This document shows, piece after piece, positions 3,762-54,224 of a DNA stretch of 64,000 bases. Source of the stretch: an uncultured Candidatus Saccharibacteria bacterium (GTDB taxonomy: Bacteria; Patescibacteriota; Minisyncoccia; Phycocordibacterales; VMEP01); the NCBI GenBank assembly GCA_964579635.1, contig CAZOFV010000002.1, positions 1,371 through 65,370 of the forward strand, written 5' to 3'. How positions within the stretch are numbered: position 1 is the stretch's first letter; every line of letters begins with the position of its first letter. Position numbers and translations under genes: made by a program. A model generated the notes under the pieces. It saw nothing but the letters and a program-made list of their open reading frames with translations, did no database searches and was not told where the DNA came from.

Positions 3762-4445
3762 TTATATTTCTAAAAATCCATCTACTAAAAGTTTATAGGC
3801 GTTTCCCTCATCAAGTCCGCGCGACATTGGATAAAACAACTCATCACGAGAAATATCTTTTATGGAAAGTGAATGAGAACAACGAACATCATTACTTGCA
3901 ATATCAAGAGATGGAATTGCGTCAACGCGAGCTTCTTCAGACAAAATCAAAAATGAAGCTGATTCCTCCCCTTTTGCCTCTATGTCTTTACCCATCGCGA
4001 TATCACTTCTGTAAATTACGTGTGCCTTATCTTTAAGAACTCCACGCACGTCAATTTTTGAAATAGTGTGTGATGCCATGTGATAAACCTTGTGATATAC
4101 ATCAACCTCCGATTCACCCACTAAATCATAAGAACTGGTTATCGAAGCTTTAGCACCACGACCGGCTAAAATAATGTGAATATCATTTTTACTAACAACC
4201 TGATTCTTAGAAGATTCAACATATTCAAATGTCGCCCCTTCGCCAACATAAACAATAAGAAGTTTTGATTGAGATAAATTATTTTCTAATTTTGTTGTTT
4301 CGTTTGATGCCACTTCAATTACTTTCCCACCCTTTGCGACGATAGATAAAAACTCCTCCGAAAAAGGAGAGGCTATTTTGAGTCCGTATTTAAAAGCGTT
4401 CGGCTCAACATAAGTATTTAAAATTTCTTTAACGTTATTTTTCAT
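3762..4445 (-). CDS. sufD: Fe-S cluster assembly protein SufD (short form)
   Basis: 227 aa SufB/D-family C-terminal beta-helix region, directly downstream of sufB. Confidence 0.75.
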   Translation of the reverse strand: MKNNVKEILNTYVEPNAFKYGLKIASPFSEEFLSIVAKGGKVIEVASNETTKLENNLSQSKLLIVYVGEGATFEYVESSKNQVVSKNDIHIILAGRGAKASITSSYDLVGESEVDVYHKVYHMASHTISKIDVRGVLKDKAHVIYRSDIAMGKDIEAKGEESASFLILSEEARVDAIPSLDIASNDVRCSHSLSIKDISRDELFYPMSRGLDEGNAYKLLVDGFLEI

Positions 4446-7022: not shown

Positions 7023-8288
7023 CTAATAGTTACGTAATCTGTCCGCCTTCTCGTGCTGGCGAATTTTTTCATGAACCTTAGCTTCAATCTGACGAATACG
7101 CTCACGGGTCACTCCAAACTCCTGTCCAACTTCTTCAAGAGTATGCATCACCCCGTCAACAAGACCGTGTCTCATTTCAAGAATTTTTCTCTCTTTTGGA
7201 GAAAGATCATCTAAAATTTCTTTAACTTGATCGGAAAGAATACGGCGCGAAGATTCTTGCGCTGGTGAAAGAATCGTTTCATCGGCGATAAATTCCCCAA
7301 GAGTTGATTTGTCTTCATCATCTCCAATTGGCTTTTCAAGCGAAACGGTATCTTGGTTGATGTTTTCAATCATGTGAATTTTTTCCACATCAATTCCCAT
7401 CTCTGTTGCGATTTCTTCTGGAAGTGGGTCACGTCCTAAATCTTGAGATAAGCGTCGTGATACTTGTTTATATTTTGCGATTGTTTCCACCATGTGCACC
7501 GGAATACGAATCGTTCTTGATTGGTCAGCAAGTGCACGTGTAATCGCCTGGCGAATCCACCATGTTGCATACGTTGAGAATTTGAACCCTTTAGTCCAGT
7601 CAAACTTATCAACCGCCTTATGTAGACCAAGATTGCCTTCCTGGATAAGGTCAAGAAGTGTTAAGTCTGAGCTACGACCAACGAATTTTTTAGCAATGGA
7701 AACAACGAGTCTTAAGTTTGCTCTCCAGAGCAAATCTCTTGCCTCCTTATCACCCTTTTCGATACGTCGAGCATATTCCTTTTCTTCGTTTGCGGAAAGG
7801 AGTGGGTATTGTCCAATCTCTCTAAGATACATCTGAATTGCATCATAAGAAGATGACTCACGACCATAACCTCTTTTTTCTAAAATTTCTTTGGCATCAA
7901 CATCAAGCAAGTTCCCTCCTTCAAGAACGTCTATTCCAGCACTACCAAAACGCTCGTAAAGTTCATCCAAAAACAAAATATTATTTTCAACGTTTGGAAA
8001 TTCTTTTAAAATTTCGTCATAAGTAATAAAACCTCGCTTCTTACCTTTAGCGATAAGAATGTCAGCTTTATCAACCAAAAGATCATGCTTTGTCTTTTTA
8101 ACAGGCTTTGCTGGCTTTTTCTCCTTAATCGGCTTTTTTACCTTAGCCACCTTTGGCTTCTTTGCTGCGACCTTCTTTTTTGAAGCAGGCTTTTTTACCA
8201 CCTTTTTCTTAAGTGGCTTCTTTGTTTTTTTAACCGTTACTTTTGGTTTTTTTGCCTTTGCTTTAGTTTTTACTTTTGTTTTTGCCAT
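7023..8288 (-). CDS. rpoD: RNA polymerase sigma-70 factor RpoD with a lysine-rich N-terminal extension
   Basis: Regions 2-4 conserved ([10 protein letters not shown]..., the [14 protein letters not shown] 2.4 region, and region 4.2 HTH). About 65 N-terminal residues are K/A/P-rich. Confidence 0.9.
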
Positions 8289-13760: not shown

Positions 13761-16700
13761 TTAATTACGGCGTCTTTTTTTAAGTTCAACATCAAGGGCC
13801 AATCCACGTAGGTAATTCAACATAACCGTAAAGGAAGCTGGAGCGTTTGGCGCCTTAACATCCTCGCCCTTGATAATAGAATCGAACGTCTGTGAACGAC
13901 CGACGATATCGTCTGATTTAACTGTAAGCATTTCACGAAGTGTGTGTGATGCTCCGTATCCTTCAAGTGCCCACACTTCCATTTCACCAAAACGCTGACC
14001 TCCACCTTGAGCTTTACCTCCCAATGGCTGTTGGGTAATGAGCGAGTACGGTCCGATGGAGCGCATGTGAATCTTATCTTCCACCATGTGGTGAAGCTTC
14101 ATGATATACATGTATCCGAGTGCGATTTCCTGATCAAACGAATCACCTGTGCGACCATCATAAAGTTTAACTTTACCAGTCTCTGAAAAACCAGCTTTCT
14201 TAAGTTCGTCACGAATTTCCTGGTCTGTTGCACCTTGGAAAGGAGGAACTATTGCCTGATAATTTAGTGTGTTTGCTGCAAGACCCATGTGAAGTTCCAA
14301 AATCTGACCTAGGTTCATACGAGAAGGAACTCCAAGTGGTGTCAAAATAACATCAATAGGTGTGCCGTCTTCCATGTATGGCATATCCTGCTCTGGCAAG
14401 ATAAGAGAAATAACACCTTTGTTTCCGTGGCGACCTGCTAGTTTATCTCCAACAGAGATGTTTCTAAGCTGTGCGACTTCAATGTGAATTCTTTTAATGA
14501 TTCCACTATCAAGTGAATCACCACTATCACGAGAGAAAACCTTTACACCAACAATACGTCCACGCTTGCCGTGTTCCATACGAAGTGAAGTGTCTTTAAC
14601 ATCACGTGCTTTTTCACCGAAGATAGAACGCAAAAGTCTTTCTTCTGGAGTAAGTTCTGATTCACCTTTTGGAGTAATCTTTCCAACCAAAATATCGTTA
14701 GGGCGAACTTCTGCACCAATACGGATAATTCCATCAATATCAAGATCTTTCAATTTTGCTTCACCAACGTTTGGAATATCACAAGTTGTGACCTCGGGCC
14801 CAAGCTTTGTATCACGAACATTCACAACGAACTCTTCAATGTGGATACTTGTGAACTTGCTGTCTTTGACCAATCTTTCTGAAAGGATAATAGCGTCTTC
14901 GTAGTTCGAACCGTCCCAAACCATAAAGCCAACCAAGACGTTTTGACCTAGTGCTACTTGTCCATGATCAGACGATGATGTGTCAGCCAATATTTCACCC
15001 TTCTTAACACGCTGTCCAACTGAGACTACTGGACGCTGATGGAAAACGCTAAAGTCGTTTGTTCTTGAGTAGTTAACTAAAGTATATTCTTTTTCTTTTC
15101 CAGATTTTGTTCCATCTACTTTAACCTTCTTTGCATCAACATAAGTAACAGTTCCCTCTTCTTCTGCAAGAACTAAACGACCTGTGTAATAAGCAACGGA
15201 GTGTTCCATACCTGTAGCAACAAGTGGAGCTTCTGGGATAATACAAGGTGTTGCCTGCTTCTGCATGTTAGAACCCATGAGTGCACGACCGGCGTCATCG
15301 TGTTCCAAGAAAGGAATAAGTGAAGTTGCAACAGAGAAAGGTTGTGTTGTTGAAACGTCGATATAATCAACGTCGTTTTTATCAACCATACCAGGTTCTG
15401 TTTTAATACGAGCTTCTACTTTCTTTTCTGTAATGTTCCCGTCAGCGTCATAATGAATACCAGCATGAGCAATAACACTTCCTTCTTCTTCAAGAGCGTT
15501 TAGGTAAACAATTTCTTTTGTAATCTTTCCGTTCTTAACCTTAACGTAAGGAGTTTCAATAATGCCGAAATTATTAATTCGAGCGTGTGTCGACAACTGC
15601 AAAATAAGACCGATGTTTTGGCCTTCTGGTGTATGGATAGGACAAACACGACCGTAGTGGGAAGTGTGCACGTCACGAACTTCAAGACCAGCTCTTTCAC
15701 GAGTAAGACCTCCTGGCCCAAGTGCTGAAAGTCTTCGTAAGTGTTCTATTTCATCCAAAACGTTACCCTGACTCATGAATTGAGAAAGTTGGTTTGTGGT
15801 GAAGAATTCTTTTATACGAGCTTGCAGTGGACGTTGATTAACTATCTGAATTGGAAGAGTTGTCTCGGCATCAATAGTAGACATTCTGTCTTGGATATTT
15901 CTCTTCATTTGAGCCATACCAACACGAATCTTTGCTTGAAGCATTTCTCCAACATATCGAACACGTCTTAATCCTAAGTGATCAATATCGTCAGCTTCAG
16001 ATCCTGGAGTGTTATTTAAGTTAGTGATGTGTTCAACAATAAGAACAACATCTTCAAGTGAAAGTGTGCGACGAGCAAGCGCAACTTCTTTCATGTCCAA
16101 ATCAAATCTCTGGTTAAAACGAAAACGTCCAACAGGAGAAAGATCATATCTCTCTTCGCTAAAAATTGACGAGATAAATTCACGAGCATTATCTGCTGTT
16201 GCAAGATCGCCATCACGAAGACGTTTATAAATTTCTATGTATGAATCATCAAGGGTTTTAGCTGGGTCCTTCTCAAGAAGAGCTGTAACCATTTCCTGCA
16301 TTTCTTTACTAAACTTATTTATGATCTCTTTGTCGCTCTTTGTTCCAAAAACACGTAGTAATGATGCAACTGGGAACTTCCTCTTTCTGTCGATACGAAC
16401 AAAGATACCTTCAGCATCAGATTCTATTTCAATCCAAACACCACGTGATGGGATTATTTTTGCACCAAAAAAACGCTTGCCTTTAATATCTTGGTCGTTA
16501 AAGAAAACGCCGAAGCTTCTAGCAAGCTGAGGAACAATAACACGCTCGACACCGTTAATGATGAAGGTGCCGTGAGAAGTCATAAGAGGAAAATCTGCCA
16601 TGAAGATTTCCTGCTCTTTAACAGTGTTAAAAGTCTTGTTCTTTAGTTTGATTGTTGCACGAAGAGGAGCTTCGTAAGAAAGCTTATTTGCCTTAGCAAA

Positions 16701-16979
16701 ATATTCATTATGTTTTGGCTCACTTAAGAAAAAAGAAGTGAACTCAAGATCAAACTTTTTATCAGAATAATCTTTTATTGGAGAGAATTCCTTAAATATT
16801 TCTTTTAGACCTTTTTCTAAAAGCCATTTATACGATGCGACCTGATTTTCAATCAAGTCTGGCATTTCAGCCAATGGTTTTTTCCATGCGGAAAAATGTT
16901 TCTGCTCACGACCGGCACCACTCAATCTTCCCGAAGACCTAGGAAGAATTGCATCCTGGACACGCAATTGTTTTGCCAT
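13761..16979 (-). CDS. rpoB: DNA-directed RNA polymerase beta subunit
   Basis: 1072 aa with conserved beta-subunit blocks. Immediately upstream of rpoC. Confidence 0.95.
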   Translation of the reverse strand: MAKQLRVQDAILPRSSGRLSGAGREQKHFSAWKKPLAEMPDLIENQVASYKWLLEKGLKEIFKEFSPIKDYSDKKFDLEFTSFFLSEPKHNEYFAKANKLSYEAPLRATIKLKNKTFNTVKEQEIFMADFPLMTSHGTFIINGVERVIVPQLARSFGVFFNDQDIKGKRFFGAKIIPSRGVWIEIESDAEGIFVRIDRKRKFPVASLLRVFGTKSDKEIINKFSKEMQEMVTALLEKDPAKTLDDSYIEIYKRLRDGDLATADNAREFISSIFSEERYDLSPVGRFRFNQRFDLDMKEVALARRTLSLEDVVLIVEHITNLNNTPGSEADDIDHLGLRRVRYVGEMLQAKIRVGMAQMKRNIQDRMSTIDAETTLPIQIVNQRPLQARIKEFFTTNQLSQFMSQGNVLDEIEHLRRLSALGPGGLTRERAGLEVRDVHTSHYGRVCPIHTPEGQNIGLILQLSTHARINNFGIIETPYVKVKNGKITKEIVYLNALEEEGSVIAHAGIHYDADGNITEKKVEARIKTEPGMVDKNDVDYIDVSTTQPFSVATSLIPFLEHDDAGRALMGSNMQKQATPCIIPEAPLVATGMEHSVAYYTGRLVLAEEEGTVTYVDAKKVKVDGTKSGKEKEYTLVNYSRTNDFSVFHQRPVVSVGQRVKKGEILADTSSSDHGQVALGQNVLVGFMVWDGSNYEDAIILSERLVKDSKFTSIHIEEFVVNVRDTKLGPEVTTCDIPNVGEAKLKDLDIDGIIRIGAEVRPNDILVGKITPKGESELTPEERLLRSIFGEKARDVKDTSLRMEHGKRGRIVGVKVFSRDSGDSLDSGIIKRIHIEVAQLRNISVGDKLAGRHGNKGVISLILPEQDMPYMEDGTPIDVILTPLGVPSRMNLGQILELHMGLAANTLNYQAIVPPFQGATDQEIRDELKKAGFSETGKVKLYDGRTGDSFDQEIALGYMYIMKLHHMVEDKIHMRSIGPYSLITQQPLGGKAQGGGQRFGEMEVWALEGYGASHTLREMLTVKSDDIVGRSQTFDSIIKGEDVKAPNAPASFTVMLNYLRGLALDVELKKRRRN

Positions 16980-17253
16980 ATTATTTTTTATCTCGTAAAG
17001 CGACCAACACTCTCATTACAGCGTAGGTCACTGCGCGAAACGGTTACGCAAAAAGAAAATGAAAGCAAGGAAAATCCCGCCCCTTTTCTAGGACACCTGA
17101 TAATTTTCTTCAATTTTCATCGAGAAGAGATTCCCGAATCTTCGCACTCCCAGGGGCGTAACTCAATCAAAAACTGGTTAAAGACAGTATACCTGAAGCA
17201 AAAACACTGTCAAACTTTTCTAATTTACAAAGAGCCACCGCCTTTTAGGGGTT

Positions 17254-17886
17254 TTATTCCCCTTTCTTCCATTTCTCAATATTAGCTTGATGACCTGAAA
17301 GCAAGACTTTTGGCACTTTATAATTTTTCCCTTTATATTTTAAAATTTCTGGACGAGTATAAACTTCGCTTGATGAAATTCTATTCTCTTCAACAGAATC
17401 GAAAGTGTTGAGCACTCCTTTGATCTGACGAGAAACAGTGTCTATCAAAACCATCGCTGGCAATTCTCCGCCAGTGAGAACGTAATCCCCAATTGAAACT
17501 TCTTCTGCTTTTAGAATTTTTTTCACACGGCCATCAATTCCTTCATATCGTCCTGACACTAAAATTATTTCTTTATTTTTTTTCAAAAGATTTCGAGCGT
17601 ATTCATTGGTCAATTTTTTACCAGCTGGTGAAAAAATAATCACCTTAGTTTTTTTCTTCCCACGAGCTTTGCCAATAGCGGTCAAAATAGGTTGCGCTTC
17701 CATGACCATTCCAGGACCACCACCATATGGTCGCCCATCTACTCTCCCCCATTTATTCTCCGTGTAATCACGAGGGTTATAAAACTTAACCGATATTTTC
17801 TTATCTGTTATGGCGCGCCCAATAATCGACTCTTTTAAATACGAGTCGAACATGCTTGGGAAAAGTGTTATTACTTGAAATTTCAT
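17254..17886 (-). CDS. trmD: tRNA (guanine37-N1)-methyltransferase TrmD
   Basis: SPOUT/TrmD conservation (ITLFP, GRYEGID). Confidence 0.9.
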   Translation of the reverse strand: MKFQVITLFPSMFDSYLKESIIGRAITDKKISVKFYNPRDYTENKWGRVDGRPYGGGPGMVMEAQPILTAIGKARGKKKTKVIIFSPAGKKLTNEYARNLLKKNKEIILVSGRYEGIDGRVKKILKAEEVSIGDYVLTGGELPAMVLIDTVSRQIKGVLNTFDSVEENRISSSEVYTRPEILKYKGKNYKVPKVLLSGHQANIEKWKKGE

Positions 17887-17910
17887 ATGCTTGTTCTATC
17901 ACGATAACAT

Positions 17911-17945
17911 AAAAGAAAAAAGCCCCGCGTTCGCAGGACTTTTGT
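17911..17945 (-). terminator. Rho-independent terminator downstream of the GC-rich orphan at 17953-18180
   Basis: On the minus strand, a CCTGCG-aa-CGCGGG hairpin followed by TTTTTTCTTTT. Confidence 0.5.
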
Positions 17946-17952
17946 CGCATGA

Positions 17953-18180
17953 CTAGTCATCTGGGGAGACAACACATCCATGGGCCGAATGCCTGCCCAG
18001 TGGGTGCTTCTCTACCAATTCGCCGAGGGTTTCGAAATAATCTTTTGACACTTGCGAATTTTCCGTCCTCTTTGCAAGAGGCTTGATTTCTCCATCTTCC
18101 TCGATACTTCTAAGCGGATCATCATGCTTGCGCCCCGGGGTTGCTTCGTAAATATCGGCCATCAAGGTCATTCGCGCCAT
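17953..18180 (-). CDS. GC-rich orphan small protein (75 aa) sitting where rimM usually lies
   Basis: SD AAAAGGAGAAAA before the ATG (18180). GC-rich. Flanked by hairpin terminators. No recognisable domain. Confidence 0.5.
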   Translation of the reverse strand: MARMTLMADIYEATPGRKHDDPLRSIEEDGEIKPLAKRTENSQVSKDYFETLGELVEKHPLGRHSAHGCVVSPDD

Positions 18181-18225
18181 CACGTTTTCTCCTTTTCGTT
18201 GATCTAAACTATTAACATCATAAAC

Positions 18226-18257
18226 AAAAACCGCCCTATATCAAGGGCGTTTTTTGT
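18226..18257. terminator. Bidirectional terminator after the KH-domain gene
   Basis: AAAAACCGCCCT-atatcaa-GGGCGTTTTTTG. Confidence 0.6.
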
Positions 18258-18275
18258 TTCTTCCTAATCTCCTAA

Positions 18276-18605
18276 TTACAAATCTTTAATGTCCTCCATC
18301 ACCGACTCAACAGTATTTAGAGTAACCCCGCTGTCGTATGGTCTTGGCGCTCCGCCTGCAGGTTCGTTTATCTTCAAATTAACACGTGCGTTATTTTTCA
18401 TTCCAACAACACGAAGAAGTGTTCTTATTGCCTTTGCGGTATTTCCTTTGCGACCGATAATTTTACCCATATCTGCTGGATTCAAATCAAGAGTCAAAAG
18501 CACACCCATCTGATCAATCACTCTTCCTATCTTCACATCGTCTGGAAAATCAACCAACGCTTTTACAACATATTCTAAAAATTCCTTATCTTTCTCCATA
18601 TTCAT
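18276..18605 (-). CDS. KH-domain RNA-binding protein (YlqC/UPF0109-like)
   Basis: GxxG KH loop (IGRKGNTAKAIR). Canonical position between rpsP and trmD. Confidence 0.8.
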   Translation of the reverse strand: MNMEKDKEFLEYVVKALVDFPDDVKIGRVIDQMGVLLTLDLNPADMGKIIGRKGNTAKAIRTLLRVVGMKNNARVNLKINEPAGGAPRPYDSGVTLNTVESVMEDIKDL

Positions 18606-18707
18606 TTCAGTAAATTATTTTTAAAAAGTAGTTCAATTAAAATGCTCTACTAAATCAATTGTAAAACTTAGATTGTCTTGGGTCAATGAACATTGTTTAA
18701 ACAAGTC

Positions 18708-18752
18708 ACAATAAAAAAGACCCTGCATCTCTGTATAAGCAGATGCAGGGTC
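18708..18752 (-). terminator. Rho-independent terminator of the 190-aa GC-rich orphan
   Basis: GACCCTGCATCT...AGATGCAGGGTC hairpin with a T-run on the minus strand. Confidence 0.55.
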
Positions 18753-18792
18753 CGTCTCCTGCCTGAAATTCTAAACTCTCAAGACCCGAGTG

Positions 18793-19365
18793 CTAATTTG
18801 CGCGCAACGCAGCAGGATCATTGTCGTCCCAGAAGTCGAGACCGAGCCAGTCGCTGAACCAGTACCACCTGCTGCCACTCCGGCCGAGGTAACGAACGTA
18901 CAGACTATCACCGGGGTGGCGGTAGATCGTGCCCCAGAAGAACACATACTTGCCTTTCCATTCCTCGGGAATGAGGTGCGGATGAGCGAGCAGGTAGTCA
19001 AGGATATTCGCGTTTAAGACAGGCTTGCTGACGAGTTCCTTACGGAGCTTGTTGCCTTCCATCATTTTGCCGTTCTGCTGTCCTTCGGCAAGAAAAAGTT
19101 CGATCTGTGAGGCATCAAACTTGAACTGTCCGCCCTTCTGATGCTCTTCGACTTTCCAGCCATCAGGAACGAAAGGGGCAGCATCGCAGTCGATGGTGTG
19201 TTCTACCTGCGTGATAGTGGCGTAGCCGAGCCGCACTTGTCGCACCCTGGCGAGATTACCCCCAGTTGCAAGCCAGTCGAGATCGGCGACATCGGGAATG
19301 CCGTTGCGAAGAAGAGCTTGTTTGATTTTGTAGGCAAGTCCAACATCGAGTGTGATATCACTCAT
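18793..19365 (-). CDS. GC-rich orphan protein (190 aa from the ATG at 19365; the ORF track starts at an upstream TTG)
   Basis: SD AAAGGAG lies 6 nt before the ATG. About 55% GC. W-rich C-terminus (SRWYWFSDWLGLDFWDD). Inserted between rpsP and the KH gene. No recognisable domain. Confidence 0.55.
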   Translation of the reverse strand: MSDITLDVGLAYKIKQALLRNGIPDVADLDWLATGGNLARVRQVRLGYATITQVEHTIDCDAAPFVPDGWKVEEHQKGGQFKFDASQIELFLAEGQQNGKMMEGNKLRKELVSKPVLNANILDYLLAHPHLIPEEWKGKYVFFWGTIYRHPGDSLYVRYLGRSGSRWYWFSDWLGLDFWDDNDPAALRAN

Positions 19366-19430
19366 TAGAGTCTCCTTTGCGACATCGAGTCTGTGAGTAG
19401 ACAAATAGTCGCTTTAATGCCAGCGGGCTT

Positions 19431-19500
19431 TCTTCGGTGCGAAGGTTTGCCATAGCAGAGAATGGCCTAGTGGTTAAAGCCGCTTTCTGCTATGGCAAAC
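19431..19500 (-). promoter_or_regulatory. Structured 5' leader or operator of the 190-aa orphan
   Basis: A perfect 15-bp inverted repeat, GTTTGCCATAGCAGA (19445-19459) and TCTGCTATGGCAAAC (19486-19500), separated by 26 nt. An adjacent CTTCG-gtg-CGAAG hairpin lies 70-135 nt upstream of the start. Confidence 0.4.
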
Positions 19501-19577
19501 ATAAGCTAAGAATCAAAGAACTATATTGGTATAAAAACATGTGTTTGTAATAAAGTCAAACATACATAATATTAAAA

Positions 19578-19613
19578 ACAAAAAAGCTGTCCTTTCTAGG
19601 ACAGCTTTTTTGA
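19578..19613. terminator. Bidirectional terminator after rpsP
   Basis: AGCTGTCCT-ttct-AGGACAGCT hairpin flanked by an A-run and a T-run. Confidence 0.65.
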
Positions 19614-19628
19614 GATAGAAAATTCAAA

Positions 19629-20108
19629 TTATGCAGCTGGTGCTTCTTCTGCCGGAGCTTCAACAACCACTTCTGCTTGCGCTGGGGTTTCTGCTACTAC
19701 CTCCGCCTGTGCTTCAACTGGAGCCTCTTCCACTACCGGTACTTCAGCTGGAATTTCTTCAGGAGCAGGAGTTGCGACTGGTGCTGGTGTAGGGGCTGCG
19801 GGAGCTTCTGCTTTAGCTGGTTCGTCTTTTTTGATAGGACTTTTCTTAGGCAAAACGTTTCTTTTCTTTCCATCAATAATTTTTTTCTCAACTAGGAAAT
19901 TATGCATTGTGTCTGAAGGCAAAGCTCCATGTGACATCCAATGCAAAACGCGATCAGCCTTAACAATGAAGTTGCCGAGCTTAGGTTCATAAGAACCGAT
20001 GACCTCAACGAAATTACCCGTCTTTGGGCTTTCGCGATGATCAACAACAACCACGCGGAAGTGCGGGCTGTTCTTTCGTCCTATTCTTTGTAACCTAATT
20101 TTTAACAT
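19629..20108 (-). CDS. rpsP: 30S ribosomal protein S16 with an Ala/Pro/Glu-rich C-terminal tail
   Basis: N-terminus MLKIRLQRIGRKNSPHFRVVV. The ORF track starts 12 codons earlier. The C-terminal low-complexity region (APAAPTPAPVATPAPEE...) explains the local GC rise. Confidence 0.85.
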   Translation of the reverse strand: MLKIRLQRIGRKNSPHFRVVVVDHRESPKTGNFVEVIGSYEPKLGNFIVKADRVLHWMSHGALPSDTMHNFLVEKKIIDGKKRNVLPKKSPIKKDEPAKAEAPAAPTPAPVATPAPEEIPAEVPVVEEAPVEAQAEVVAETPAQAEVVVEAPAEEAPAA

Positions 20109-20165
20109 GCAGGCAATACTAATAGAAATGGCCCGATAGGTCAAGCTTATTTTTTTAGCTTTTGT

Positions 20166-20241
20166 CTTTAAAAACGCGCATAAAACTTTGCTAAGTTTTT
20201 GCTATGCTCGTGCCGTCGCACTGCGCAATGTTTTTAAAAAC
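20166..20241. promoter_or_regulatory. Conserved structured element, copy 1 (upstream of rpsP)
   Basis: Outer inverted repeat CTTTAAAAAC/GTTTTTAAAAAC, core AAAACTTTGCTAAGTTTTT, inner hairpin GTGC-cgtc-GCAC, then TGCGCAA. Sits just upstream of a predicted rpsP promoter TTGACC-N17-TAGTAT. Confidence 0.45.
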
Positions 20242-20353
20242 AAAAGCAGGGACTAGAAAAGACAAGAATATCCTATCCAAGAGCACCCCCCTTAAAGGTT
20301 CTAATCACCCAATCTAACCAATTTTGGCCACTTTTGTGTTATGATTTGAACCC

Positions 20354-22339
20354 ATGAAAAAGCATACCGATAAACATCATAAAGTAGAGCACAAAAAGGC
20401 TCCTGTGAAAGAACACGCCCAAAAGCACCACGAACATACCGTTGAAGGCACTATCACTGTCAGTTTCAAAGGTATTGGTTTTGTTCGCATTGAAGGAGAA
20501 GATGAATCAATAGAAGTCTCTGCTAATTCACTAAATACTGCGCTTCACGGCGACCGAGTTAAGGTTTCCGTTCACGGCAAAGGACGCAACGGACAACCAC
20601 AAGGTGAAGTTATTGAAATCCTACTTAGGGCAAGATCTGGCTTTGCTGGCACCATAGAAAAAGACCGCGACGTCTATTACCTTATTCCACAAGACCAGCG
20701 TGTTTATGTTGACCTTGTTATTCCAAAAGATGATTTAGGAGAAGCAAAAGAAGGAGATAAGGTTTTTGCCGCATTCATTGAGTGGACCGATCCAAAGAAA
20801 AATCCTGTTGGTAAGGTTCTCCGTGTTTTGGGTAGACCAGGAGAACACGAGGCAGAAATGGTTGCTATCGTTTTGGAATCTGGTTTTGATACTGGTTTTC
20901 CAAAAGAAGTTGAGGACGAATCAAAAAAGCTTGAAGAAAAAGGTATTACTGAAGATGATTTAAAAGGTCGTCGTGATTTTCGCAACACTACAACATTCAC
21001 CATTGACCCAGAAGACGCCAAAGACTTTGATGACGCCATCTCAATTCAAGATTTAGGTAACAATGTTTATGAAATCGGTGTGCATATTGCTGATGTTTCC
21101 CATTATGTTCGCCCAGGAACCGAAATTGATAAAGAAGCGATGAAACGCACAACTTCTATATACCTCGTCGACCGCACAATTCCAATGCTTCCGGAAGGAC
21201 TTTCTAATGGATTATGTAGTTTAAATGCAAACGAAGACAAACTGACTTTTAGCGCCGTTTTTAAAATTGATATGCAGGGGAAAATATCTGACTATTGGTT
21301 TGGTCGCTCTGTTATAAAATCAAATAAACGCTTTACCTACGAAAATGCCCAGGAAACTATCGATCGTGGTTCTGGAGAATATTTTGAAGAACTCGTAATT
21401 TTAAATAAGATTGCCAAAAAATTAAAACAAAAACGCTTTGACGAAGGTGCCATTTCTCTTGAACAAGAAGAAGTGCGTTTTAAGTTGGATGAAACCGGGC
21501 GCCCTGTATCTATTTATAAAAAAGTTCGTGGTGATACTCATAAACTCGTTGAGGAATTTATGCTACTTGCCAACCGCGAGGTTGCCTCATTTGTCGCCAA
21601 AAAACACGAAAATGAAGATGGTGTTTTCGTTTACCGTATTCACGACGAACCAAATACAGAGCGTATCCAAAACCTCGCAATATTCGTTAAAAGCTTGGGC
21701 TATGACCTAAAAATGACCGATGGGAAAACGACACCAAGAGATATAAATAATCTTCTAGAAAAACTTGAAGGCACAAGTGTAAAAGACATGATTCAGACCG
21801 CCGTTGTCCGCTCAATGGCAAAAGCAATTTACACAACTCAAAACATTGGCCACTTTGGCTTAGGTTTTGAGTTCTATACACATTTCACATCTCCTATCCG
21901 TCGTTATCCAGACACCATGGTCCACAGACTTTTAGCACGATACTTAAACAACGAAAAAATAGACGCAAAAGAATGGAAGTTCTACGAAAGAATGTCTACC
22001 TTTTCATCACAACGAGAAAAAGAAGCATCTGATGCTGAGCGTGGCTCAATCAAATATAAACAAGTGGAATATATGTCAGAACGCATTGGGCAGATTTTTG
22101 ACGGCGTAATTTCTGGAGTTACTGAGTGGGGTTTCTACGTTGAAGAAAAAGAAACGAAATGTGAGGGTATGGTTCCGCTACGAACATTAAACGACGACTT
22201 CTATAATTTTGAAGAAAAACGCTACCGCTTGGTTGGAGAAAAAACAAAAAAAATATATTCTCTCGGAGATAAAATAAAATTCAAAGTTGAAAAAACAGAC
22301 CTTGGAAGAAAAACTATTGATTACTCTTTAGTAAGTTAG
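20354..22339 (+). CDS. rnr: Ribonuclease R (RNB family 3'-5' exoribonuclease)
   Basis: RNB catalytic domain conservation, C-terminal S1 domain, His/Lys-rich N-terminus. Confidence 0.88.
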   Translation: MKKHTDKHHKVEHKKAPVKEHAQKHHEHTVEGTITVSFKGIGFVRIEGEDESIEVSANSLNTALHGDRVKVSVHGKGRNGQPQGEVIEILLRARSGFAGTIEKDRDVYYLIPQDQRVYVDLVIPKDDLGEAKEGDKVFAAFIEWTDPKKNPVGKVLRVLGRPGEHEAEMVAIVLESGFDTGFPKEVEDESKKLEEKGITEDDLKGRRDFRNTTTFTIDPEDAKDFDDAISIQDLGNNVYEIGVHIADVSHYVRPGTEIDKEAMKRTTSIYLVDRTIPMLPEGLSNGLCSLNANEDKLTFSAVFKIDMQGKISDYWFGRSVIKSNKRFTYENAQETIDRGSGEYFEELVILNKIAKKLKQKRFDEGAISLEQEEVRFKLDETGRPVSIYKKVRGDTHKLVEEFMLLANREVASFVAKKHENEDGVFVYRIHDEPNTERIQNLAIFVKSLGYDLKMTDGKTTPRDINNLLEKLEGTSVKDMIQTAVVRSMAKAIYTTQNIGHFGLGFEFYTHFTSPIRRYPDTMVHRLLARYLNNEKIDAKEWKFYERMSTFSSQREKEASDAERGSIKYKQVEYMSERIGQIFDGVISGVTEWGFYVEEKETKCEGMVPLRTLNDDFYNFEEKRYRLVGEKTKKIYSLGDKIKFKVEKTDLGRKTIDYSLVS

Positions 22340-22401
22340 ATTTGCCTAAAATAATTAAGTTGAGTTATATTAAAATCTGTTGTTTTTAGGAGAAAGCTAG
22401 C

Positions 22402-22626
22402 ATGGATGTTATCGCACCTTCAGGAGATGGATTTTGCCCAGCGTGTCACGGGGATGCCATTTATTTCAAACAACTCGACGAAGAAAGGATGGGTAAAGAT
22501 ATTCAGATAACCCGTCTTTATCACTGTGTTTGTGGTTATAAAGCGAAAGTTGTAATCAATGGCCGAAACATACTCTCTTGCAAGAACCCATCTCCGCAAG
22601 AAATAGAGTCTCTGCACGCTTCGTAA
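22402..22626 (+). CDS. GC-rich orphan zinc-ribbon protein (74 aa)
   Basis: SD TAGGAGAAAG before the ATG. CPAC...CVCG cysteine pairs. Shares a terminator with the convergent orphan. Confidence 0.5.
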   Translation: MDVIAPSGDGFCPACHGDAIYFKQLDEERMGKDIQITRLYHCVCGYKAKVVINGRNILSCKNPSPQEIESLHAS

Positions 22627-22639
22627 AAAAGCACCAAAC

Positions 22640-22670
22640 AAAAACCCGCCAGTTGGCGGGTTTTATTATT
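22640..22670. terminator. Bidirectional terminator shared by the convergent Zn-ribbon orphans
   Basis: AAAACCCGCCA-gt-TGGCGGGTTTT. Confidence 0.65.
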
Positions 22671-22684
22671 TATGCCACGAATGG

Positions 22685-22975
22685 CTAAATTGTGAACGGA
22701 GTATTCATCATTTCTATGAATTCTTTTTCTCCGACCTTAGGAACATCATCTCCCGCATGAAGATACTGCCTGCCACACTTACGACAAGCCGCAGTGCGAT
22801 AAAGGAATGCCCCGTTAAACCAGCCGGAAACTTCGCGCACAACATCCCCACCGCAATTTTCCGCCTTGCACTTATTGCCAAGGAAGGGAGTATTTTCTTC
22901 CCGGAATACCTTCCTGGCCTTAAAAAACCTGGCCAAGTTTTCCTCAGACAGCTCAGGAAAATTTCTATTGCCCAT
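22685..22975 (-). CDS. GC-rich orphan zinc-ribbon protein (96 aa)
   Basis: SD GGAGGG before the ATG. CKAENC...CRKC cysteine pairs. GC-rich. Confidence 0.5.
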   Translation of the reverse strand: MGNRNFPELSEENLARFFKARKVFREENTPFLGNKCKAENCGGDVVREVSGWFNGAFLYRTAACRKCGRQYLHAGDDVPKVGEKEFIEMMNTPFTI

Positions 22976-23058
22976 GATTAGTCCCTCCAGTTATCAAACC
23001 AAACCTGTCTTTAAGATATATACGCTAAACAATCAAGTCAACCTTATCTAAATGATTA

Positions 23059-25347
23059 TTATTTCGCCACAGCGACAGCTTCTTCAAATTTAACGGAAAG
23101 TAGTCTCGAAGCCGCGTCCCCTGCTGTTGTAATTCCATAAAGCACTCCTGCGCGAGACATTGTTTCTCTATTGTGAGTGATAACAACTAATTGCGAATGT
23201 TTAGCAAGATTCTCCAGCATATCTGCATATTTACGTGAGTTTGCTTCATCAAGCGCCGCGTCGGTTTCATCAAGAACAAGAAATGGTGGAGGATTAACCT
23301 GAGAGACAGCAAAGATAAGCGCGATTGAGGTTAAAGCTCTTTCCCCTCCCGAGAGCATCTGTAAATCACGAATTTTTTTCTGTGGAAGATTTACTTTAAT
23401 ATCAATTCCATATTTAACATCTTCGTCTTCAGACGCTTCATCATAAAGTTCTTCACCTGTGTCTGGGTCAAAACCGATACTTTTTTGTTTTCTTTTCTCC
23501 TCAATGATTGAGAGTGTGGCTGACCCTCCATCAAACATTAATTTAAAGAATTCATCAAACTGTTTATTTATCTTTTCTATCCCTTCAGAGAACTGATTAT
23601 TTAATTTATCACGAAGGTTTGTGATAAGCGCCTCAATATCTTCTGCGCTTCTCTTTAAGTCACCAATTTCGCGTTCAAGGAAAGTATCTCTCTCAGATAC
23701 CTCTTGATATTCTCTCATAAGTTCCGCACCACCAGCAGCACCCATATCTTCAAGGCGAATCTTCATCCTCTCCATTTTCTTTCGACGATCTTCTTGTATC
23801 TCACGTGGTTCAGACATTAAAGAAGACTCGTCAATTTCAAATGTTTGATATCGCATCGAATCATTACCAATCAAAACTTTCGCCTCCTCAATTTCCGTCT
23901 TCATCATTTCTTCGTCGCGTAAAACAGAATGTTCCTTTGAAGAAAGTACGTCCAACTTAGAAACACATTCACTTCTGTGGGCAGATAGTTCATATAATTT
24001 TCGCTCGTGTTCATGTGACAAATCTTTGTCTTTTTCAAGCTCACTCTTCGCTTTCATATACTCAAGATTGAGAGAATTTTCCTCACCTTCTTTTTTCAAA
24101 ATATCCTCTTCGACTGAAACACACTCACTACGTAACCGAGCAAAATCCTCTTCAGAAAAGATAACTCTTTGTGGAATATTCTCACGAAGAATTACCAAAA
24201 AATCACTAGTTAATTGTTTTAAAGAAGCAAAAAGTGTTCTTATTGCCAAAATATCGTTAATCGTCTCCCCTTCAGATAACAAAGAATTAACTCTCTCAGC
24301 GAAAGAACGAACTCTAGAAACAGGAATTTGTGCGCCTTCTTCTTCTTGGACGTTTGATTCAGCTTCTTTTTTTCTCTCCTCTTCAATTTCTATTCTCCCT
24401 TCAAGTCGTCCAAGCTTTCTTGATAACTCATCTTTATCACGACGAATAGCGCGGAGTCCTTCTTCAAACCTGCGCAAACTAGAAAGCGTCTCTAAGTTCC
24501 TTTCTCTTGAAGCAAGAGAATCTTTAATGCTCCCAATCATTTTTTCAACATCACGAAGAGTGTTGGTTAAAACACTCTTTTCTTTCCCTATTTTTTCTTT
24601 TTCGCGCGTAAGGTAAAACTCTTCACGCTTTAAATATTCCGCATAAAGACTTGATAATTCAACACGGAGCTCTTCTGCTTTTTCAACCTTCTCAACCTGT
24701 TTCTTTAAAAATTTTATATGGGGAGCGATTTCACGACGAAGTGATTCGGCTTTTTCTGTATTTTCACGAGTACGTTCTAATTTTTTTTCACCATCGCTTA
24801 TTTTCCATTGGTATATTTTTAGACCAAGCGCTTCTTCGATCATCGTACGGCGCTCAATGATATTCGCATTCAAAATTCTATCTGCTTCGCCTTGTGAAAT
24901 AATATGATGTCCTGATGCTCCAATATTAACCGAAGCTAAGAGTTCAATAATATCTCGAAGGCGAACCTGTGAACCGTTTATTAAATATTTATTTGTCCCG
25001 TCACGATATACCTCACGAGTAATTGTAATTTTATCAAAATTTAAATTTATATCTCCAGACAGCTCACCCTCAAGAGAAAACATTCTCTTTGAGTTATCAA
25101 AAGTAATGGAAACATGGGCTCGGTTCATTACTGGAATTGCCTTTGAACCGTTAAAAATCATGTCCTCTCCTTTTTTACCGCGGAGAGATTTGAGAGACTG
25201 TTCGCCCAAAACAAAACGAATTGATTCTGCGATATTTGATTTACCAGAACCATTAGGTCCAACAATTGATGTGATTGGGGCGGAAAATTCAAGCTCGCTT
25301 TTTTTAGCGAACGATTTAAAACCGGAAAGTTCAAGGCTCTTCAACAT
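23059..25347 (-). CDS. smc: SMC-family chromosome segregation ATPase (unusually short, 762 aa)
   Basis: Walker A GPNGSGKSN, long coiled coil, ABC signature LSGGERALT, Walker B LVLDETDAALD. Confidence 0.75.
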   Translation of the reverse strand: MLKSLELSGFKSFAKKSELEFSAPITSIVGPNGSGKSNIAESIRFVLGEQSLKSLRGKKGEDMIFNGSKAIPVMNRAHVSITFDNSKRMFSLEGELSGDINLNFDKITITREVYRDGTNKYLINGSQVRLRDIIELLASVNIGASGHHIISQGEADRILNANIIERRTMIEEALGLKIYQWKISDGEKKLERTRENTEKAESLRREIAPHIKFLKKQVEKVEKAEELRVELSSLYAEYLKREEFYLTREKEKIGKEKSVLTNTLRDVEKMIGSIKDSLASRERNLETLSSLRRFEEGLRAIRRDKDELSRKLGRLEGRIEIEEERKKEAESNVQEEEGAQIPVSRVRSFAERVNSLLSEGETINDILAIRTLFASLKQLTSDFLVILRENIPQRVIFSEEDFARLRSECVSVEEDILKKEGEENSLNLEYMKAKSELEKDKDLSHEHERKLYELSAHRSECVSKLDVLSSKEHSVLRDEEMMKTEIEEAKVLIGNDSMRYQTFEIDESSLMSEPREIQEDRRKKMERMKIRLEDMGAAGGAELMREYQEVSERDTFLEREIGDLKRSAEDIEALITNLRDKLNNQFSEGIEKINKQFDEFFKLMFDGGSATLSIIEEKRKQKSIGFDPDTGEELYDEASEDEDVKYGIDIKVNLPQKKIRDLQMLSGGERALTSIALIFAVSQVNPPPFLVLDETDAALDEANSRKYADMLENLAKHSQLVVITHNRETMSRAGVLYGITTAGDAASRLLSVKFEEAVAVAK

Positions 25348-26187: not shown

Positions 26188-26898
26188 TTATTTTAGCCAG
26201 CCTTTTTTCTTTAAAGCACCTTCCGCCGCTTTTTGTTCAGCCTCTTGTTTTGATTTACCAGAACCATCCACAATTAATTCTTTAGAAAGAAAAACCCCGA
26301 CAGTAAACCGCTTATCATGATCTGGTCCAGATTCAGATAACACTTTGTAAACCGGAGTAATACCAAAATGCTCCTGTGCTTTTTCTTGAAAAACGCTTTT
26401 AGCATCACGCCATGAACCCTTCTCCAAAATCTCTTTCATTTCTGGAAACAAAAACTCCTCAACAAAATCGTTTGATTTTTCATAACCTTGATCAAGATAA
26501 AGCGCACCCAAAAACGACTCAAAAGTATTCGCCAAGATATCCTGCCTTGCCTTACCAGTATCTTTTGATTCCCCTTTTGAAAGAAGCAGGAATTCATTCA
26601 TTCCAAGTTTTTCCGCAACCATAGAAAGAGTGACTGCATTCACAAGTGCCGCGCGATACGAAGTTAAATCCCCTTCATTTTTATCTGGATAATTTTTATA
26701 CAAATAATTTGTGGTAATAAGCTCAAGAACAGCATCACCTAAAAATTCCAAACGTTCATTATGATGAATTCCAACCTTTGGGTTTTCGTTTAAATATGAA
26801 CGATGAATAAACGCCTGCTTTAATAGGTTTTTATCTTTAAAGTTAACACTTACCTTTTTTTCAAACTTTGAGAAATCAATCATGTTTCTTGAGAACAC
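26188..26898 (-). CDS. rnc: Ribonuclease III
   Basis: ERLEFLGDAVLE signature, C-terminal dsRBD. Confidence 0.9.
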   Translation of the reverse strand: MFSRNMIDFSKFEKKVSVNFKDKNLLKQAFIHRSYLNENPKVGIHHNERLEFLGDAVLELITTNYLYKNYPDKNEGDLTSYRAALVNAVTLSMVAEKLGMNEFLLLSKGESKDTGKARQDILANTFESFLGALYLDQGYEKSNDFVEEFLFPEMKEILEKGSWRDAKSVFQEKAQEHFGITPVYKVLSESGPDHDKRFTVGVFLSKELIVDGSGKSKQEAEQKAAEGALKKKGWLK

Positions 26899-26986: not shown

Positions 26987-27886
26987 TTATTTCTTCAAAA
27001 GAACGCCTACTGCTTTTGTGATGATTGGCACAATATCATCATAAAGATTCAAAGAAGGAACTTCCGTTACAGGGAACCATCTTGAATCATCGAGTCCGCC
27101 AACTTTCTCTGTTGTAAGTGTGACAACCGGCGATTCAGCAAGATAATAACAAACCTGCTTCCTTAGCCTACCTTTTTCTGGGTCAGTTGCAAGATACTCA
27201 TTATCTCCAATTTTTTCTTTAACTGTAACTGGAATTCCAAGCTCTTCTTTGGTTTTTCGATTAACCGCTTCTTCGTCGGTCTCGCCTTCTTGCAGATGAC
27301 CCTTAGCAAGCGTCCAGTGTCCAAAAATATCGTGAACCAAAGCAAGCTGTAAAACACCGTTTCCCCAACCAAAAACAATTGCACCAATTAATTTATCAAT
27401 TGGGAGTTTTTCTATGTCTTCCGGGTCTTTGCTGTGTTTATTTTTACTCGTATCATCTTTTCCTGGTTCGCCCAACTCTTTATAGACCGCACCCAAAACT
27501 CCATTAACAAATTTTCCACTATTCTCTCCGCCAAAAGATTTTGCCAATTCAATTGCTTCGTTGATTGCAACCTTTGGTGGAACCTCGAGTCTATCTGCAA
27601 AAAGAAGCTCAAAGAGCCCTAAACGTAAGATATTTCTATCAACTGCTGCAATTCGATCAATCGGCCAAGCTGGTGCCGCTTTTTCTATAATGTCGTCTAG
27701 TGTTTTTGTACGAGAAGCAATATTGACGGAAAGTGTACGCATAAAATCTGCGTCACTTGTTCCTGGGGCAAATTCTTCAATATTTCTTTTTAAGGTGTCT
27801 TCTAGAGTATTTTCCGGCTGGCCATTAAAATCCCACTCAAAGAGGGTTTGGAGAACTATTGACCGTGAAAGGTGCCTATTAGCCAT
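26987..27886 (-). CDS. nusB: NusB antitermination factor fused to a C-terminal NUDIX hydrolase domain
   Basis: N-terminal about 140 aa NusB fold. C-terminal Nudix box GHWTLAKGHLQEGETDEEAVNRKTKEELGI. Confidence 0.75.
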   Translation of the reverse strand: MANRHLSRSIVLQTLFEWDFNGQPENTLEDTLKRNIEEFAPGTSDADFMRTLSVNIASRTKTLDDIIEKAAPAWPIDRIAAVDRNILRLGLFELLFADRLEVPPKVAINEAIELAKSFGGENSGKFVNGVLGAVYKELGEPGKDDTSKNKHSKDPEDIEKLPIDKLIGAIVFGWGNGVLQLALVHDIFGHWTLAKGHLQEGETDEEAVNRKTKEELGIPVTVKEKIGDNEYLATDPEKGRLRKQVCYYLAESPVVTLTTEKVGGLDDSRWFPVTEVPSLNLYDDIVPIITKAVGVLLKK

Positions 27887-27913: not shown

Positions 27914-28138
27914 TTATTTTACCGCCGAAGCTTTCTTAGCCTTCTTTTCTTTCTTCGCTATCTTTTTGTTTACATCAAGTACCTGGCGACCACGGTAAGT
28001 ACCGCAGTTCGGGCAGACCCGATGCGTAAGGTGCGGTGCCGCACATTTCTCGCACTTAGATAACGAACCCCCCACTAATGCGTGGTGGGAACGGCGATTG
28101 CGGGTGTGAGCCCGCGTGTGTCTCATTCGTACAACCAT
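27914..28138 (-). CDS. rpmF: 50S ribosomal protein L32
   Basis: RRSHHAL...CxxC...[13 protein letters not shown] zinc-ribbon signature. Confidence 0.85.
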
Positions 28139-28195
28139 AACTTGCGTAGTATTACAAAAAGAGACAAAAAAGTAAAGGTTTCATTTTTAAACACA

Positions 28196-28277
28196 CACCA
28201 CTAAAATACACGCGTAAAATTCTGCTGAATTTTCGCTCTGCTCGATTCGTCAATCTGCGCAAGGTATTTTAGTGGTG
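28196..28277. promoter_or_regulatory. Conserved structured element, copy 2 (upstream of rpmF)
   Basis: Outer inverted repeat CACCACTAAAATAC/GTATTTTAGTGGTG, core AAAATTCTGCTGAATTTT, inner hairpin GATT-cgtc-AATC, then TGCGCAA. Confidence 0.45.
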
Positions 28278-28311
28278 TATGCGGGGTACGGAATACGTAA
28301 AATTTATCTAA

Positions 28312-28947
28312 TTAAGAAGAAAAACCTGTATTTTTAAGGAAACTCCGGCGGTGGATTTTGGTGATGCCATGTTTTTTAATCGCCAAGTAATGTGCCTTAG
28401 TGCCATATCCTTTATGTCTTTCAAAACCATATTGTGGAAACTTCTTGGCAAATCGCACCATTAATCGGTCGCGGGTTACCTTTGCAACAACTGAGGCAAT
28501 AGAAATAATCTGCACCAAATCATCTCCGTGGATTATTGTTTTTTGGTTTTTATATTCTTTAGGCGCTTTCAATCCCCCATCAAGAAATATCTGCGCATAC
28601 TCTGGTTTAACCTTAAGATTTGAAAGAGATTTATCAAGCGCGCTTTGTATAGAAAAAACTATTCCCTTTTTATCGATAATTGTTGGTGTGGTAAAAGAAA
28701 CAGAAAATTTTATATCGCCACACATTTGCGCCAATTTTATTTTCTTAAACCACTCTTCTCTTTTTTTCTCTGAAAGTTTCTTTGAATCTCGTATTCCTTT
28801 GAATTCTTTTTTTAGCCGAGAATTATATACAGCCGAATTTATGGCCACGGCGCCGACAGCCACCGGCCCTGCCAACGGCCCTCGCCCTACTTCATCGATA
28901 CCGACAATAAATTTTTGTTTTTTAGCCACACAATTCTTCATATCCAC
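28312..28947 (-). CDS. rnhB: Ribonuclease HII
   Basis: GIDEVGRGPLAGPVV motif, 211 aa. Confidence 0.9.
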   Translation of the reverse strand: MDMKNCVAKKQKFIVGIDEVGRGPLAGPVAVGAVAINSAVYNSRLKKEFKGIRDSKKLSEKKREEWFKKIKLAQMCGDIKFSVSFTTPTIIDKKGIVFSIQSALDKSLSNLKVKPEYAQIFLDGGLKAPKEYKNQKTIIHGDDLVQIISIASVVAKVTRDRLMVRFAKKFPQYGFERHKGYGTKAHYLAIKKHGITKIHRRSFLKNTGFSS

Positions 28948-54048: not shown

Positions 54049-54104
54049 AAGCCCGTACTTTACTAGAAAGCGCTCAAATTTGCAAATGTGTCTTTTTCAC
54101 TTTT

Positions 54105-54183: not shown

Positions 54184-54224
54184 AAAAGTCTAGATTTTTT
54201 AAGAAAAATCAGGGTAAAAATGAA

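Follow-up and report, generated by a model that had tools for sequence, protein, structure and literature searches.

An apparently undescribed folded repeat of about 92 bases between rnhB and rpmF

Position and fold of copy 2

The window, which is the whole 64,000-nucleotide stretch of DNA analysed here, carries rnhB and rpmF in series on its minus strand, and a structured element, copy 2, lies between them (Table 1). The rnhB stop codon at 28312 is located 29 nt before stem P1 of the element. Just downstream of rpmF are a NusB-NUDIX fusion gene (Pfam NusB and NUDIX; 26987–27886, minus strand) and then the gene for RNase III (26188–26898, minus strand). The first-pass annotation had placed a conserved structured element at 28196–28277; it is present and slightly larger, with its ends set by the extension of P1. 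Copy 1 separates the divergent genes rnr and rpsP (S16 by Pfam), and copy 3 lies between an SLT-domain gene and rpmE (L31 by Pfam). The three copies score 84–103 bits in covariance model searches (E values of 1e-18 to 1e-23), and all are found 50–60 nt upstream of ribosomal-protein start codons in one orientation. No fourth copy was found in the 64-kb window with two covariance models and the filters off; the remaining matches are plain hairpins below 20 bits.

Table 1. Coordinates of the element copies, the parts of copy 2 and the neighbouring features in the window
Feature	Position	Strand	Description
Copy 2, whole element	28191–28282	-	92 nt, P1 and three-way-junction core; model scores 102.8 and 95.5 bits
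Copy 1	20158–20247	-	P1 18 bp; covariance model match
Copy 3	54099–54189	-	P1 19 bp; covariance model match
P1 5´ arm	28264–28282	-	GCAUACACCACUAAAAUAC, 19 nt; pairs with 28191–28209, 19 bp
P1 3´ arm	28191–28209	-	GUAUUUUAGUGGUGUGUGU; from fold
P2	28238–28262	-	P2a UUGC/GCAG, internal loop GCA/GA, P2b GAUU/AAUC, loop GACG; from fold and covariation
P2a	28262–28259 with 28241–28238	-	UUGC/GCAG
P2 internal loop	GCA 28258–28256 opposite GA 28243–28242	-	
P2b loop GACG	28251–28248	-	loop of GAUU/AAUC
P3	28212–28236	-	P3a GCG/CGC, bulged A28215, P3b AAAAUUC/GAAUUUU, loop AGCA 28226–28223; from fold
Junction bases	C28263, A28237, G28211, U28210	-	
rnhB (RNase HII)	28312–28947	-	upstream neighbour of copy 2; Pfam RNase_HII, E 5e-37
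rpmF (ribosomal protein L32)	27914–28138	-	downstream neighbour of copy 2; Pfam Ribosomal_L32p, E 3.9e-16
A-rich spacer	28177–28190	-	UUAAAAAUGAAACC, between copy 2 and -35 box; UP-element-like position; direct reading
Predicted rpmF promoter	28148–28176	-	-35 TTTACT 28171–28176, 17 nt, extended -10 TGtAATACT 28148–28156; 9 nt to ATG 28138
Predicted rpsP promoter	TTGACC 20139–20144; TAGTAT 20116–20121	-	17 nt between hexamers; 7 nt to ATG 20108; flagged by scan
Predicted rpmE promoter	TTGCAA 54080–54085; TAAAGT 54057–54062	-	17 nt between hexamers; 8 nt to ATG 54048; below strict scan threshold

Read on the minus strand from 28282 to 28191, copy 2 consists of GCAUACACCACUAAAAUAC, a 54-nt core and GUAUUUUAGUGGUGUGUGU. 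P1 contains two G-U pairs, which are possible on the minus strand only. As RNA, the minus strand folds with -41.5 kcal/mol (z = -8.3), and none of 200 shuffled sequences is equally stable; the plus strand reaches -33.8 kcal/mol, and the minus-strand fold is likewise the more stable one in copies 1 and 3. The fold is also significantly stable with DNA parameters (z = -8.5). In an alignment of the three window copies, the mean column identity is 77%, and the outer stems are unlike in sequence while their complementarity is kept. The alignment and the fold thus confirm the earlier view that copy 2 has the architecture of copy 1 with outer and inner stems that differ and remain complementary. The identity of its core with that of copy 3 also holds: the 18-mer AAAATTCTGCTGAATTTT is exact at 28216–28233 and at 54123–54140. 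The GCGC segments, which had been taken as an extension of the outer stem, instead form P2a and P3a at the junction, as indicated by covariation and by copy 3, in which both partners of one P3a pair are co-deleted. Copy 3 also changes position 24:45 from G-C to A-U.

The distance from P1 to the -35 box is 13–14 nt of A-rich sequence at all three copies (13 nt for copies 1 and 3). Two short hairpins near copy 1 lie in the rpsP promoter region, outside the element. The rpmF promoter hexamers and the TG are conserved in the closest relative (L116, 93% L32 identity) and the spacer is not; a strict consensus scan leaves this promoter unflagged. No Shine-Dalgarno sequence precedes rpsP, rpmF or rpmE, and each predicted promoter is close to the ATG; the mRNAs look leaderless, with the element upstream of the predicted promoter. 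For rpmF, transcription is predicted to start 2–3 nt before the ATG. To the earlier question of whether it initiates downstream of the element, promoter-like hexamers alone predict a yes. The window copies would follow the end of the upstream unit and precede the A-rich UP region and -35 box of a ribosomal-protein promoter that is apparently leaderless. Copy 2 would lie outside the main rpmF mRNA and may at most block, or cap at the 3´ end, read-through transcripts from rnhB. The -10-like hexamers of rpsP, rpmF, rpmE and rnr all end 7–10 nt before the ATG; the regions concerned are 20106–20144, 28136–28176 and 54046–54085 on the minus strand and, for rnr, 20330–20356 on the plus strand, where a Shine-Dalgarno sequence is also absent and the mRNA likewise looks leaderless. 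The S16 protein (19629–20108, minus strand) has a C-terminal tail of ~95 residues that is rich in Ala, Pro, Glu and Val.

Distribution, pairing and strand of the element family

The search with a covariance model that the first-pass annotation had proposed reveals a large family outside the window. A pattern of the P2/P3 region was scanned over species-representative genomes and returned at least 115 loci; the covariance model then identifies at least 158 copies in at least 114 loci (133 in 100 loci and 25 in 15 more), which represent at least 78 species genomes as counted by accession prefix. Among the matches listed, all but one are metagenome-assembled genomes (MAGs) of the Parcubacteria group, and the exception, a gammaproteobacterial false positive, is rejected by the model. 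The labels include Nomura-, Taylor-, Zambryski-, Lloyd-, Vogel-, Wildermuth- and Portnoybacteria, Paceibacterota, RAAC4_OD1_1 and LiPW_30, and some carrier MAGs are deposited as 'Saccharibacteria'. Nearly all of the copies lie between called ORFs and all form hairpins; 20 of 136 fall inside a crude ORF call. Copies other than the match by which each locus was fetched occur at ~1 per 19 kb, and the window holds 3 in 64 kb. This density corresponds to roughly 30 copies in a 0.7-Mb genome of such kind, and the number per genome ranges from one to perhaps dozens. The phage, plasmid and viral contigs searched contain no match.

Rfam 15 at gathering thresholds recovers only a tRNA-Thr from the whole window and has no family for the element. 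A permissive search (E up to 10) of 28120–28320 returns chance hairpin matches of 12–16 bits. No description of the element was found in the literature searched, and it is apparently an undescribed folded repeat of about 92 bases. We tentatively assign copy 2 to a family of extragenic repeats that is dispersed in the Parcubacteria group and conserved in structure.

Pairing is maintained throughout the family. In an alignment of 131 distinct sequences, which had been fitted to the covariance model, standard pairs occupy 94.0% of the cells, compared with 66.9% in shuffles and 41–51% with slid partners, and both sides change in 33 of the 34 pairs. Covariation in these sequences is seen for P2a and P2b; in P3, 99% of the cells are paired and double changes occur at 9 of 10 pairs. 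The stem sequences vary between copies, and pairing alone is kept. The unpaired nucleotides, namely the junction bases, the GCA/GA loop, the AGCA loop and the bulged A, are conserved across at least 78 species genomes, a conservation that the retrieval partly imposed. The retrieval pattern forced a part of the core (part of P3 and the junction) and left the 5´ half YUUGCGSAG free, so the apparent conservation of P3 and the junction is inflated.

The folded species is the model strand, which corresponds to the minus strand of the window, because G-U pairs far outnumber A-C mismatches: 78 to 23 in P1, 83 to 1 in P2a, 10 to 2 in P2b and 42 to 2 in P3. The asymmetry persists in copies that are antisense to both neighbours (37 to 1 in the core). 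The strand of the element correlates neither with GC skew (49 of 114 loci) nor with the local coding strand (50 of 114), and scanning for consensus sequences and counting TAnnnT and TTGnnn by position reveals no promoter signal at a fixed distance upstream of P1. Strand selection is not accounted for by neighbour transcription, replication strand or a detectable promoter. Single-stranded DNA mobility of the IS200/IS605 type at the replication fork predicts a strand bias, and none is seen at the 114 loci.

Around the core, the copies differ in length. P1 spans 17–19 bp in 57 of 106 well-flanked copies, which form a sharp peak, and its sequence is copy-specific. Many subfamilies carry an internal loop of about 6x6 nt outside P1, with GUCG[AC]A or GAGCGA on the 5´ side and [GA]AGAAA or GAGCGA on the 3´ side. 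The GAGCGA motif that flanks P1 in one subfamily reappears in the core. A further outer stem, P0, of at least 7 bp is present in 32% of copies, compared with 11% of controls, mostly across the 6x6 loop. P0 covaries, and relatives with both the loop and P0 form a rod of about 125–150 nt. The genus of the window has ...CCCC on the 5´ side and AAAAAA on the 3´ side, without a clear P0. In some copies P2 carries conserved expansions of 30–60 nt that vary in length, and one genome holds two core types set apart by compensatory changes. The P1 arms have no other complementary site in the window to which they might act as guides.

Neighbouring genes, gain and loss

The link to rpmF was followed in 80 metagenomic rpmF loci, which cover 286 kb and an L32 identity of 42–93%. 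The element is located upstream of rpmF in one of the 80 (L160), and one more locus has a copy 1.8 kb away, which gives 2 copies in 286 kb. The closest relative, L116, is without copy 2 at rpmF. After its rnhB stands a 5´-truncated element of the copy-1 lineage, of which only the 3´ part is present, followed by an A-tract and promoter for two small membrane-peptide ORFs and then by the rpmF promoter as in the window. These ORFs (L116 700–1020, between rnhB and rpmF) are paralogous, encode ~48 aa each and end in ...SGLFLVAIVMM.... In L058, too, an element stands after rnhB; if any association is conserved, it is this one ('after rnhB') and not 'before rpmF'. With one occurrence in 80 rpmF loci, four orientation contexts and diverse neighbours, the functional tie to rpmF or ribosomal-protein genes that had been implied does not survive; the element is not an rpmF-specific control element.

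Relative to the element, the upstream and downstream neighbours are opposite/opposite in 34 cases, same/same in 27, same/opposite in 21 and opposite/same in 18, as scored with a crude ORF caller. About half of the copies are antisense to the adjacent gene, and the antisense cases are flanked by long ORFs. The neighbours are ordinary housekeeping genes (S16, S2, RRF, Pth, ClpP, FtsH, SmpB, RNase R and others) as well as tRNA genes. No recurrent partner gene stands beside the element: the 835 ORFs of the loci cluster into housekeeping families only. The 3´ side is typically 10–20 nt from the stop codon of an opposite-strand gene or, in a subset, 8–18 nt from a -35 box, and the spacers on the 5´ side are longer. 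Family-wide, the 3´ flank is A-rich, with 54–75% A at most of positions +2 to +6; no such richness is seen in the 5´ flank. The sole positional promoter signal (-35/-10) lies downstream of P1 in a subset of copies; in the cluster of the genus of the window, a -35 box follows at a distance of 8–18 nt in about 12–13 of about 16 copies, judged by eye. The stem is not followed by a U-tract on either strand, and no terminator-like site was found at copies 2 and 3. An intrinsic terminator is rejected because no U-tract comes directly after the stem.

Some loci keep a copy across genera: after rnhB, before rpsP (as also in L069 and L029), and between tRNA-Lys and tRNA-Leu. The tRNA cluster Leu(taa)-Lys(ctt)-[element]-Leu(tag) is conserved in two genomes (L035 7519–7927, minus strand; L024 456–1142, plus strand) with the element in sense. 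The L035 element ends 4 nt before tRNA-Leu and must therefore be transcribed and read through there. Other copies fill gaps between convergent genes with 2–7 nt to each stop codon, and a single convergent gene pair holds copies of opposite orientation in L006 and L081. Most copies are singlets; the 18 adjacent pairs are head-to-head in 10 cases, tandem in 7 and tail-to-tail in 1.

The LiPW_30 genome is syntenic with 16580–24011 of the window (92–96% identity over most of this length and 81–86% in two short blocks). Between a terminator and the khpA promoter it carries one copy more than the window, whose corresponding site (~18690–18710) is empty. Upstream of its rpsP lies an orthologue of copy 1 with a nested insertion in P2, and the 3´ arm of this orthologue is lost to a second, copy-2-like element, which makes the arrangement both nested and tandem. 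A single composite, in which the hairpin CTCAATTGC...GCAATTGAG and a second core occupy the P2 loop, occurs at two LiPW_30 loci (L069 ~4100–4190 and L053 ~7440–7500), and the nested form itself has therefore been copied. Related genomes carry the copy-2 P1 lineage at loci that differ from one genome to the next. Of the 190 copy pairs in genome CAZFHL, 63 reach an identity of 90% or more over P0, P1 and the core; these near-identical copies have no target-site duplication and instead carry 2–3 further copy-specific complementary bases at their ends. In most genomes the copies are as divergent within as between genomes (median identity 68%) with stems intact, and the persistence of copy-specific stems in old, divergent copies argues for selection at each locus and not just copying.

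The region between rpsP and khpA also contains a variable cassette (18690–19500, minus strand). In the window it encodes a 203-aa ORF (18793–19404) with no Pfam hit, and in LiPW_30 (L069 2310–3300) an unrelated ORF takes its place. Both cassettes are bounded by a conserved hairpin (19445–19500) and a canonical terminator (18719–18752).

Readings of the element

Our best reading, which we hold tentatively, is that the element is a REP/REPIN-like structured extragenic repeat read by a conserved factor, because it is extragenic, palindromic and multi-copy, occurs in both orientations, forms some doublets, is nested and variably present, and leaves no duplication. REP, BIME and REPIN sequences are likewise multi-copy, palindromic extragenic repeats in both orientations without target-site duplication, keep their hairpin pairing and insert into or beside existing copies. 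They are often arranged as inverted doublets; of the 18 adjacent pairs of the element, 10 are head-to-head and 1 is tail-to-tail, and most copies are singlets. In the REP/REPIN and RAYT (TnpA-REP) system, recognition is of a single-stranded fold that contains a bulge and has a conserved motif beside it (PMC3116915, PMC8266576), to which the strand-specific folding of the element may be compared. The unpaired nucleotides of the element are shared by several candidate phyla, and the junction must have a conserved reader. The junction would be the recognition surface for a conserved trans-acting protein, which may maintain or copy the element via a single-stranded form by the logic of REP/REPIN and RAYT, with a far more elaborate fold. 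The stable hairpin would be tolerated, and perhaps used, at transcription-unit boundaries.

Several features do not fit a REP/REPIN-like repeat. A REP hairpin is 20–40 nt long, whereas the element is an asymmetric three-way junction of 92–150 nt. REP sequences are species-specific, in contrast to a core whose pattern is exact in at least 78 species genomes of several candidate phyla. Unlike REPINs, the copies are mostly singlets, without strand bias relative to GC skew (49 of 114) or the coding strand (50 of 114). Most copies are old, at ~68% identity, and some loci are retained across genera. No partner enzyme was found by adjacency, and a phmmer query with an approximate IS608 TnpA sequence, which is a weak test, returns no IS200- or RAYT-like protein from ~1.2 Mb of six-frame ORFs in 8-kb blocks around the element.

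A serious rival, which we consider rather unlikely, is a small structured RNA that is made on the model strand at each copy, independently or by processing from longer transcripts. Release may perhaps occur by RNase III cutting of the long P0/P1 stem, with the junction as the scaffold of a conserved protein that acts in trans in a host function; the RNase III gene lies 1.3 kb from copy 2. The excess of G-U over A-C in every context, including copies antisense to both neighbours, is consistent with this reading, as are the stems that stay intact in old, divergent copies. The 3–4-bp helices P2a (4 bp with a conserved U-G) and P3a (3 bp and a bulge) are more plausible in RNA than in DNA, and expansions of variable length, as seen in P2, are found in functional RNAs. 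The L035 element is in sense within a tRNA cluster, and the longer 5´ spacers together with the head-to-head preference (10 versus 1 tail-to-tail) leave room for upstream promoters. However, no promoter-like signal stands at a fixed upstream distance, no U-tract follows P1, and the copies in convergent gaps are separated from either stop codon by 2–7 nt. Most rpmF-bearing relatives have the element rarely or not at all, with 2 copies in 286 kb, and an essential RNA gene would not usually show bursts, nesting and truncation.

We also regard it as doubtful that the family is a new class, which would be either a multi-copy small RNA with a Parcubacteria-wide ribonucleoprotein or a mobile element recognised purely by its fold. 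In the latter case, an enzyme family that has so far not been connected with substrates of this kind would copy a fixed 19-bp stem of arbitrary sequence and a conserved junction via a single-stranded intermediate. Non-coding DNA is scarce in the tiny genomes of Parcubacteria, yet up to dozens of copies of this 92–150-nt fold are present in some of them. Identifying the reader of the junction, which could be an RNA-binding protein, a nuclease or a structure-specific recombinase, would bring to light either a new ribonucleoprotein or a new route by which DNA spreads in a lineage that is uncultured and poorly understood. The covariance model lets annotators mask or label the copies and prevents their being mistaken for ribosomal-protein leaders.

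Other intergenic hairpin repeats resemble the element in size and position. Correia/NEMIS repeats of Neisseria and ERIC repeats of enterobacteria are 100–150 nt long and lie near gene ends and promoters. They are transcribed together with their neighbours, and can be cut by RNase III or affect the promoters next to them. Their terminal inverted repeats are conserved in sequence, and Correia elements have a TA duplication. In contrast, the element has stems that differ between copies, sequence conservation confined to the apical core, and no duplication. A MITE is rejected for similar reasons: P1 differs between copies, and the near-identical CAZFHL copies have no direct repeat at their ends. 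Integron attC sites are not known to have a conserved 54-nt core, form arrays at the 3´ ends of cassettes and carry RYYYAAC/GTTRRRY core sites. The element shares with them the conservation of structure over sequence, strand-specific folding and variable length; compared with this description of attC, its copies are dispersed among housekeeping genes and have a conserved core, and an attC assignment is rejected. The K-turn, hammerhead, twister-sister and group II domain V motifs do not fit the conserved positions.

It is improbable that the element serves as transcription punctuation, in which the hairpin would be a read-through barrier, a 3´-end protector or an insulator in either orientation and the core would be secondary. 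This role would fit the places in which the element is found (in convergent gaps, behind tRNA genes, and between the upstream stop codon and the promoter that follows), the -35/-10 signal after P1, the 8–18-nt distance to the -35 box at about 12–13 of about 16 copies (by eye) in the genus of the window, and the L006/L081 convergent pair with its two orientations. Against it, neither strand has a U-tract, canonical terminators are used elsewhere (for example at 18719–18752) and one of them precedes the element in LiPW_30, copy 1 has no co-directional upstream gene, and the L035 element must be read through for tRNA-Leu. The conserved unpaired core and the strand asymmetry are left unexplained by such a role.

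A function as double-stranded DNA, whether as a cruciform or protein-binding site ahead of promoters or as a segment that inverts between the P1 inverted repeats, is very improbable. The element is at about -50 to -140 from the predicted starts in the window, P1 is a perfect inverted repeat, the orientation is flipped between L006 and L081 at one locus, and the DNA fold is significantly stable (z = -8.5). However, a symmetric duplex or cruciform predicts no asymmetry between G-T and A-C, and the asymmetry is strong; the pairing of the stems is conserved and their sequence is not, and the 54-nt core contains no promoter.

Least probable is the model implied by the first-pass annotation, a cis-regulatory leader or riboswitch for rpmF, rpsP and rpmE: the window copies resemble ribosomal-protein leaders in being structured elements 50–60 nt before these starts in one orientation, the element precedes rpsP in L069 and L029, and rnhB read-through could place copy 2 in a longer rpmF transcript, but predicted promoters lie between element and ATG, the mRNAs look leaderless, 1 of 80 rpmF loci has the element, about half of the copies are antisense to the adjacent gene, and the neighbours are functionally unrelated. 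The element is tied to no single ribosomal-protein gene, and the Rfam leader families do not match it. A riboswitch is rejected, since all four orientation classes occur beside unrelated neighbours and no expression platform is present, neither a terminator nor a helix that sequesters a Shine-Dalgarno sequence or ribosome-binding site.

Two observations were made at individual loci. Downstream of the element in L042, a strong promoter (TTGACC-17-TAATAT; ~7400–7495, minus strand) is followed by no ORF of at least 45 aa within ~300 nt by a crude ORF call, and may belong to an unannotated RNA gene. The CAZFHL loci (L021 1348–1689 and neighbours) encode a tandem family of small secreted or membrane proteins, MKKVSIVLALALLPF..., with 9 members in 3 loci.
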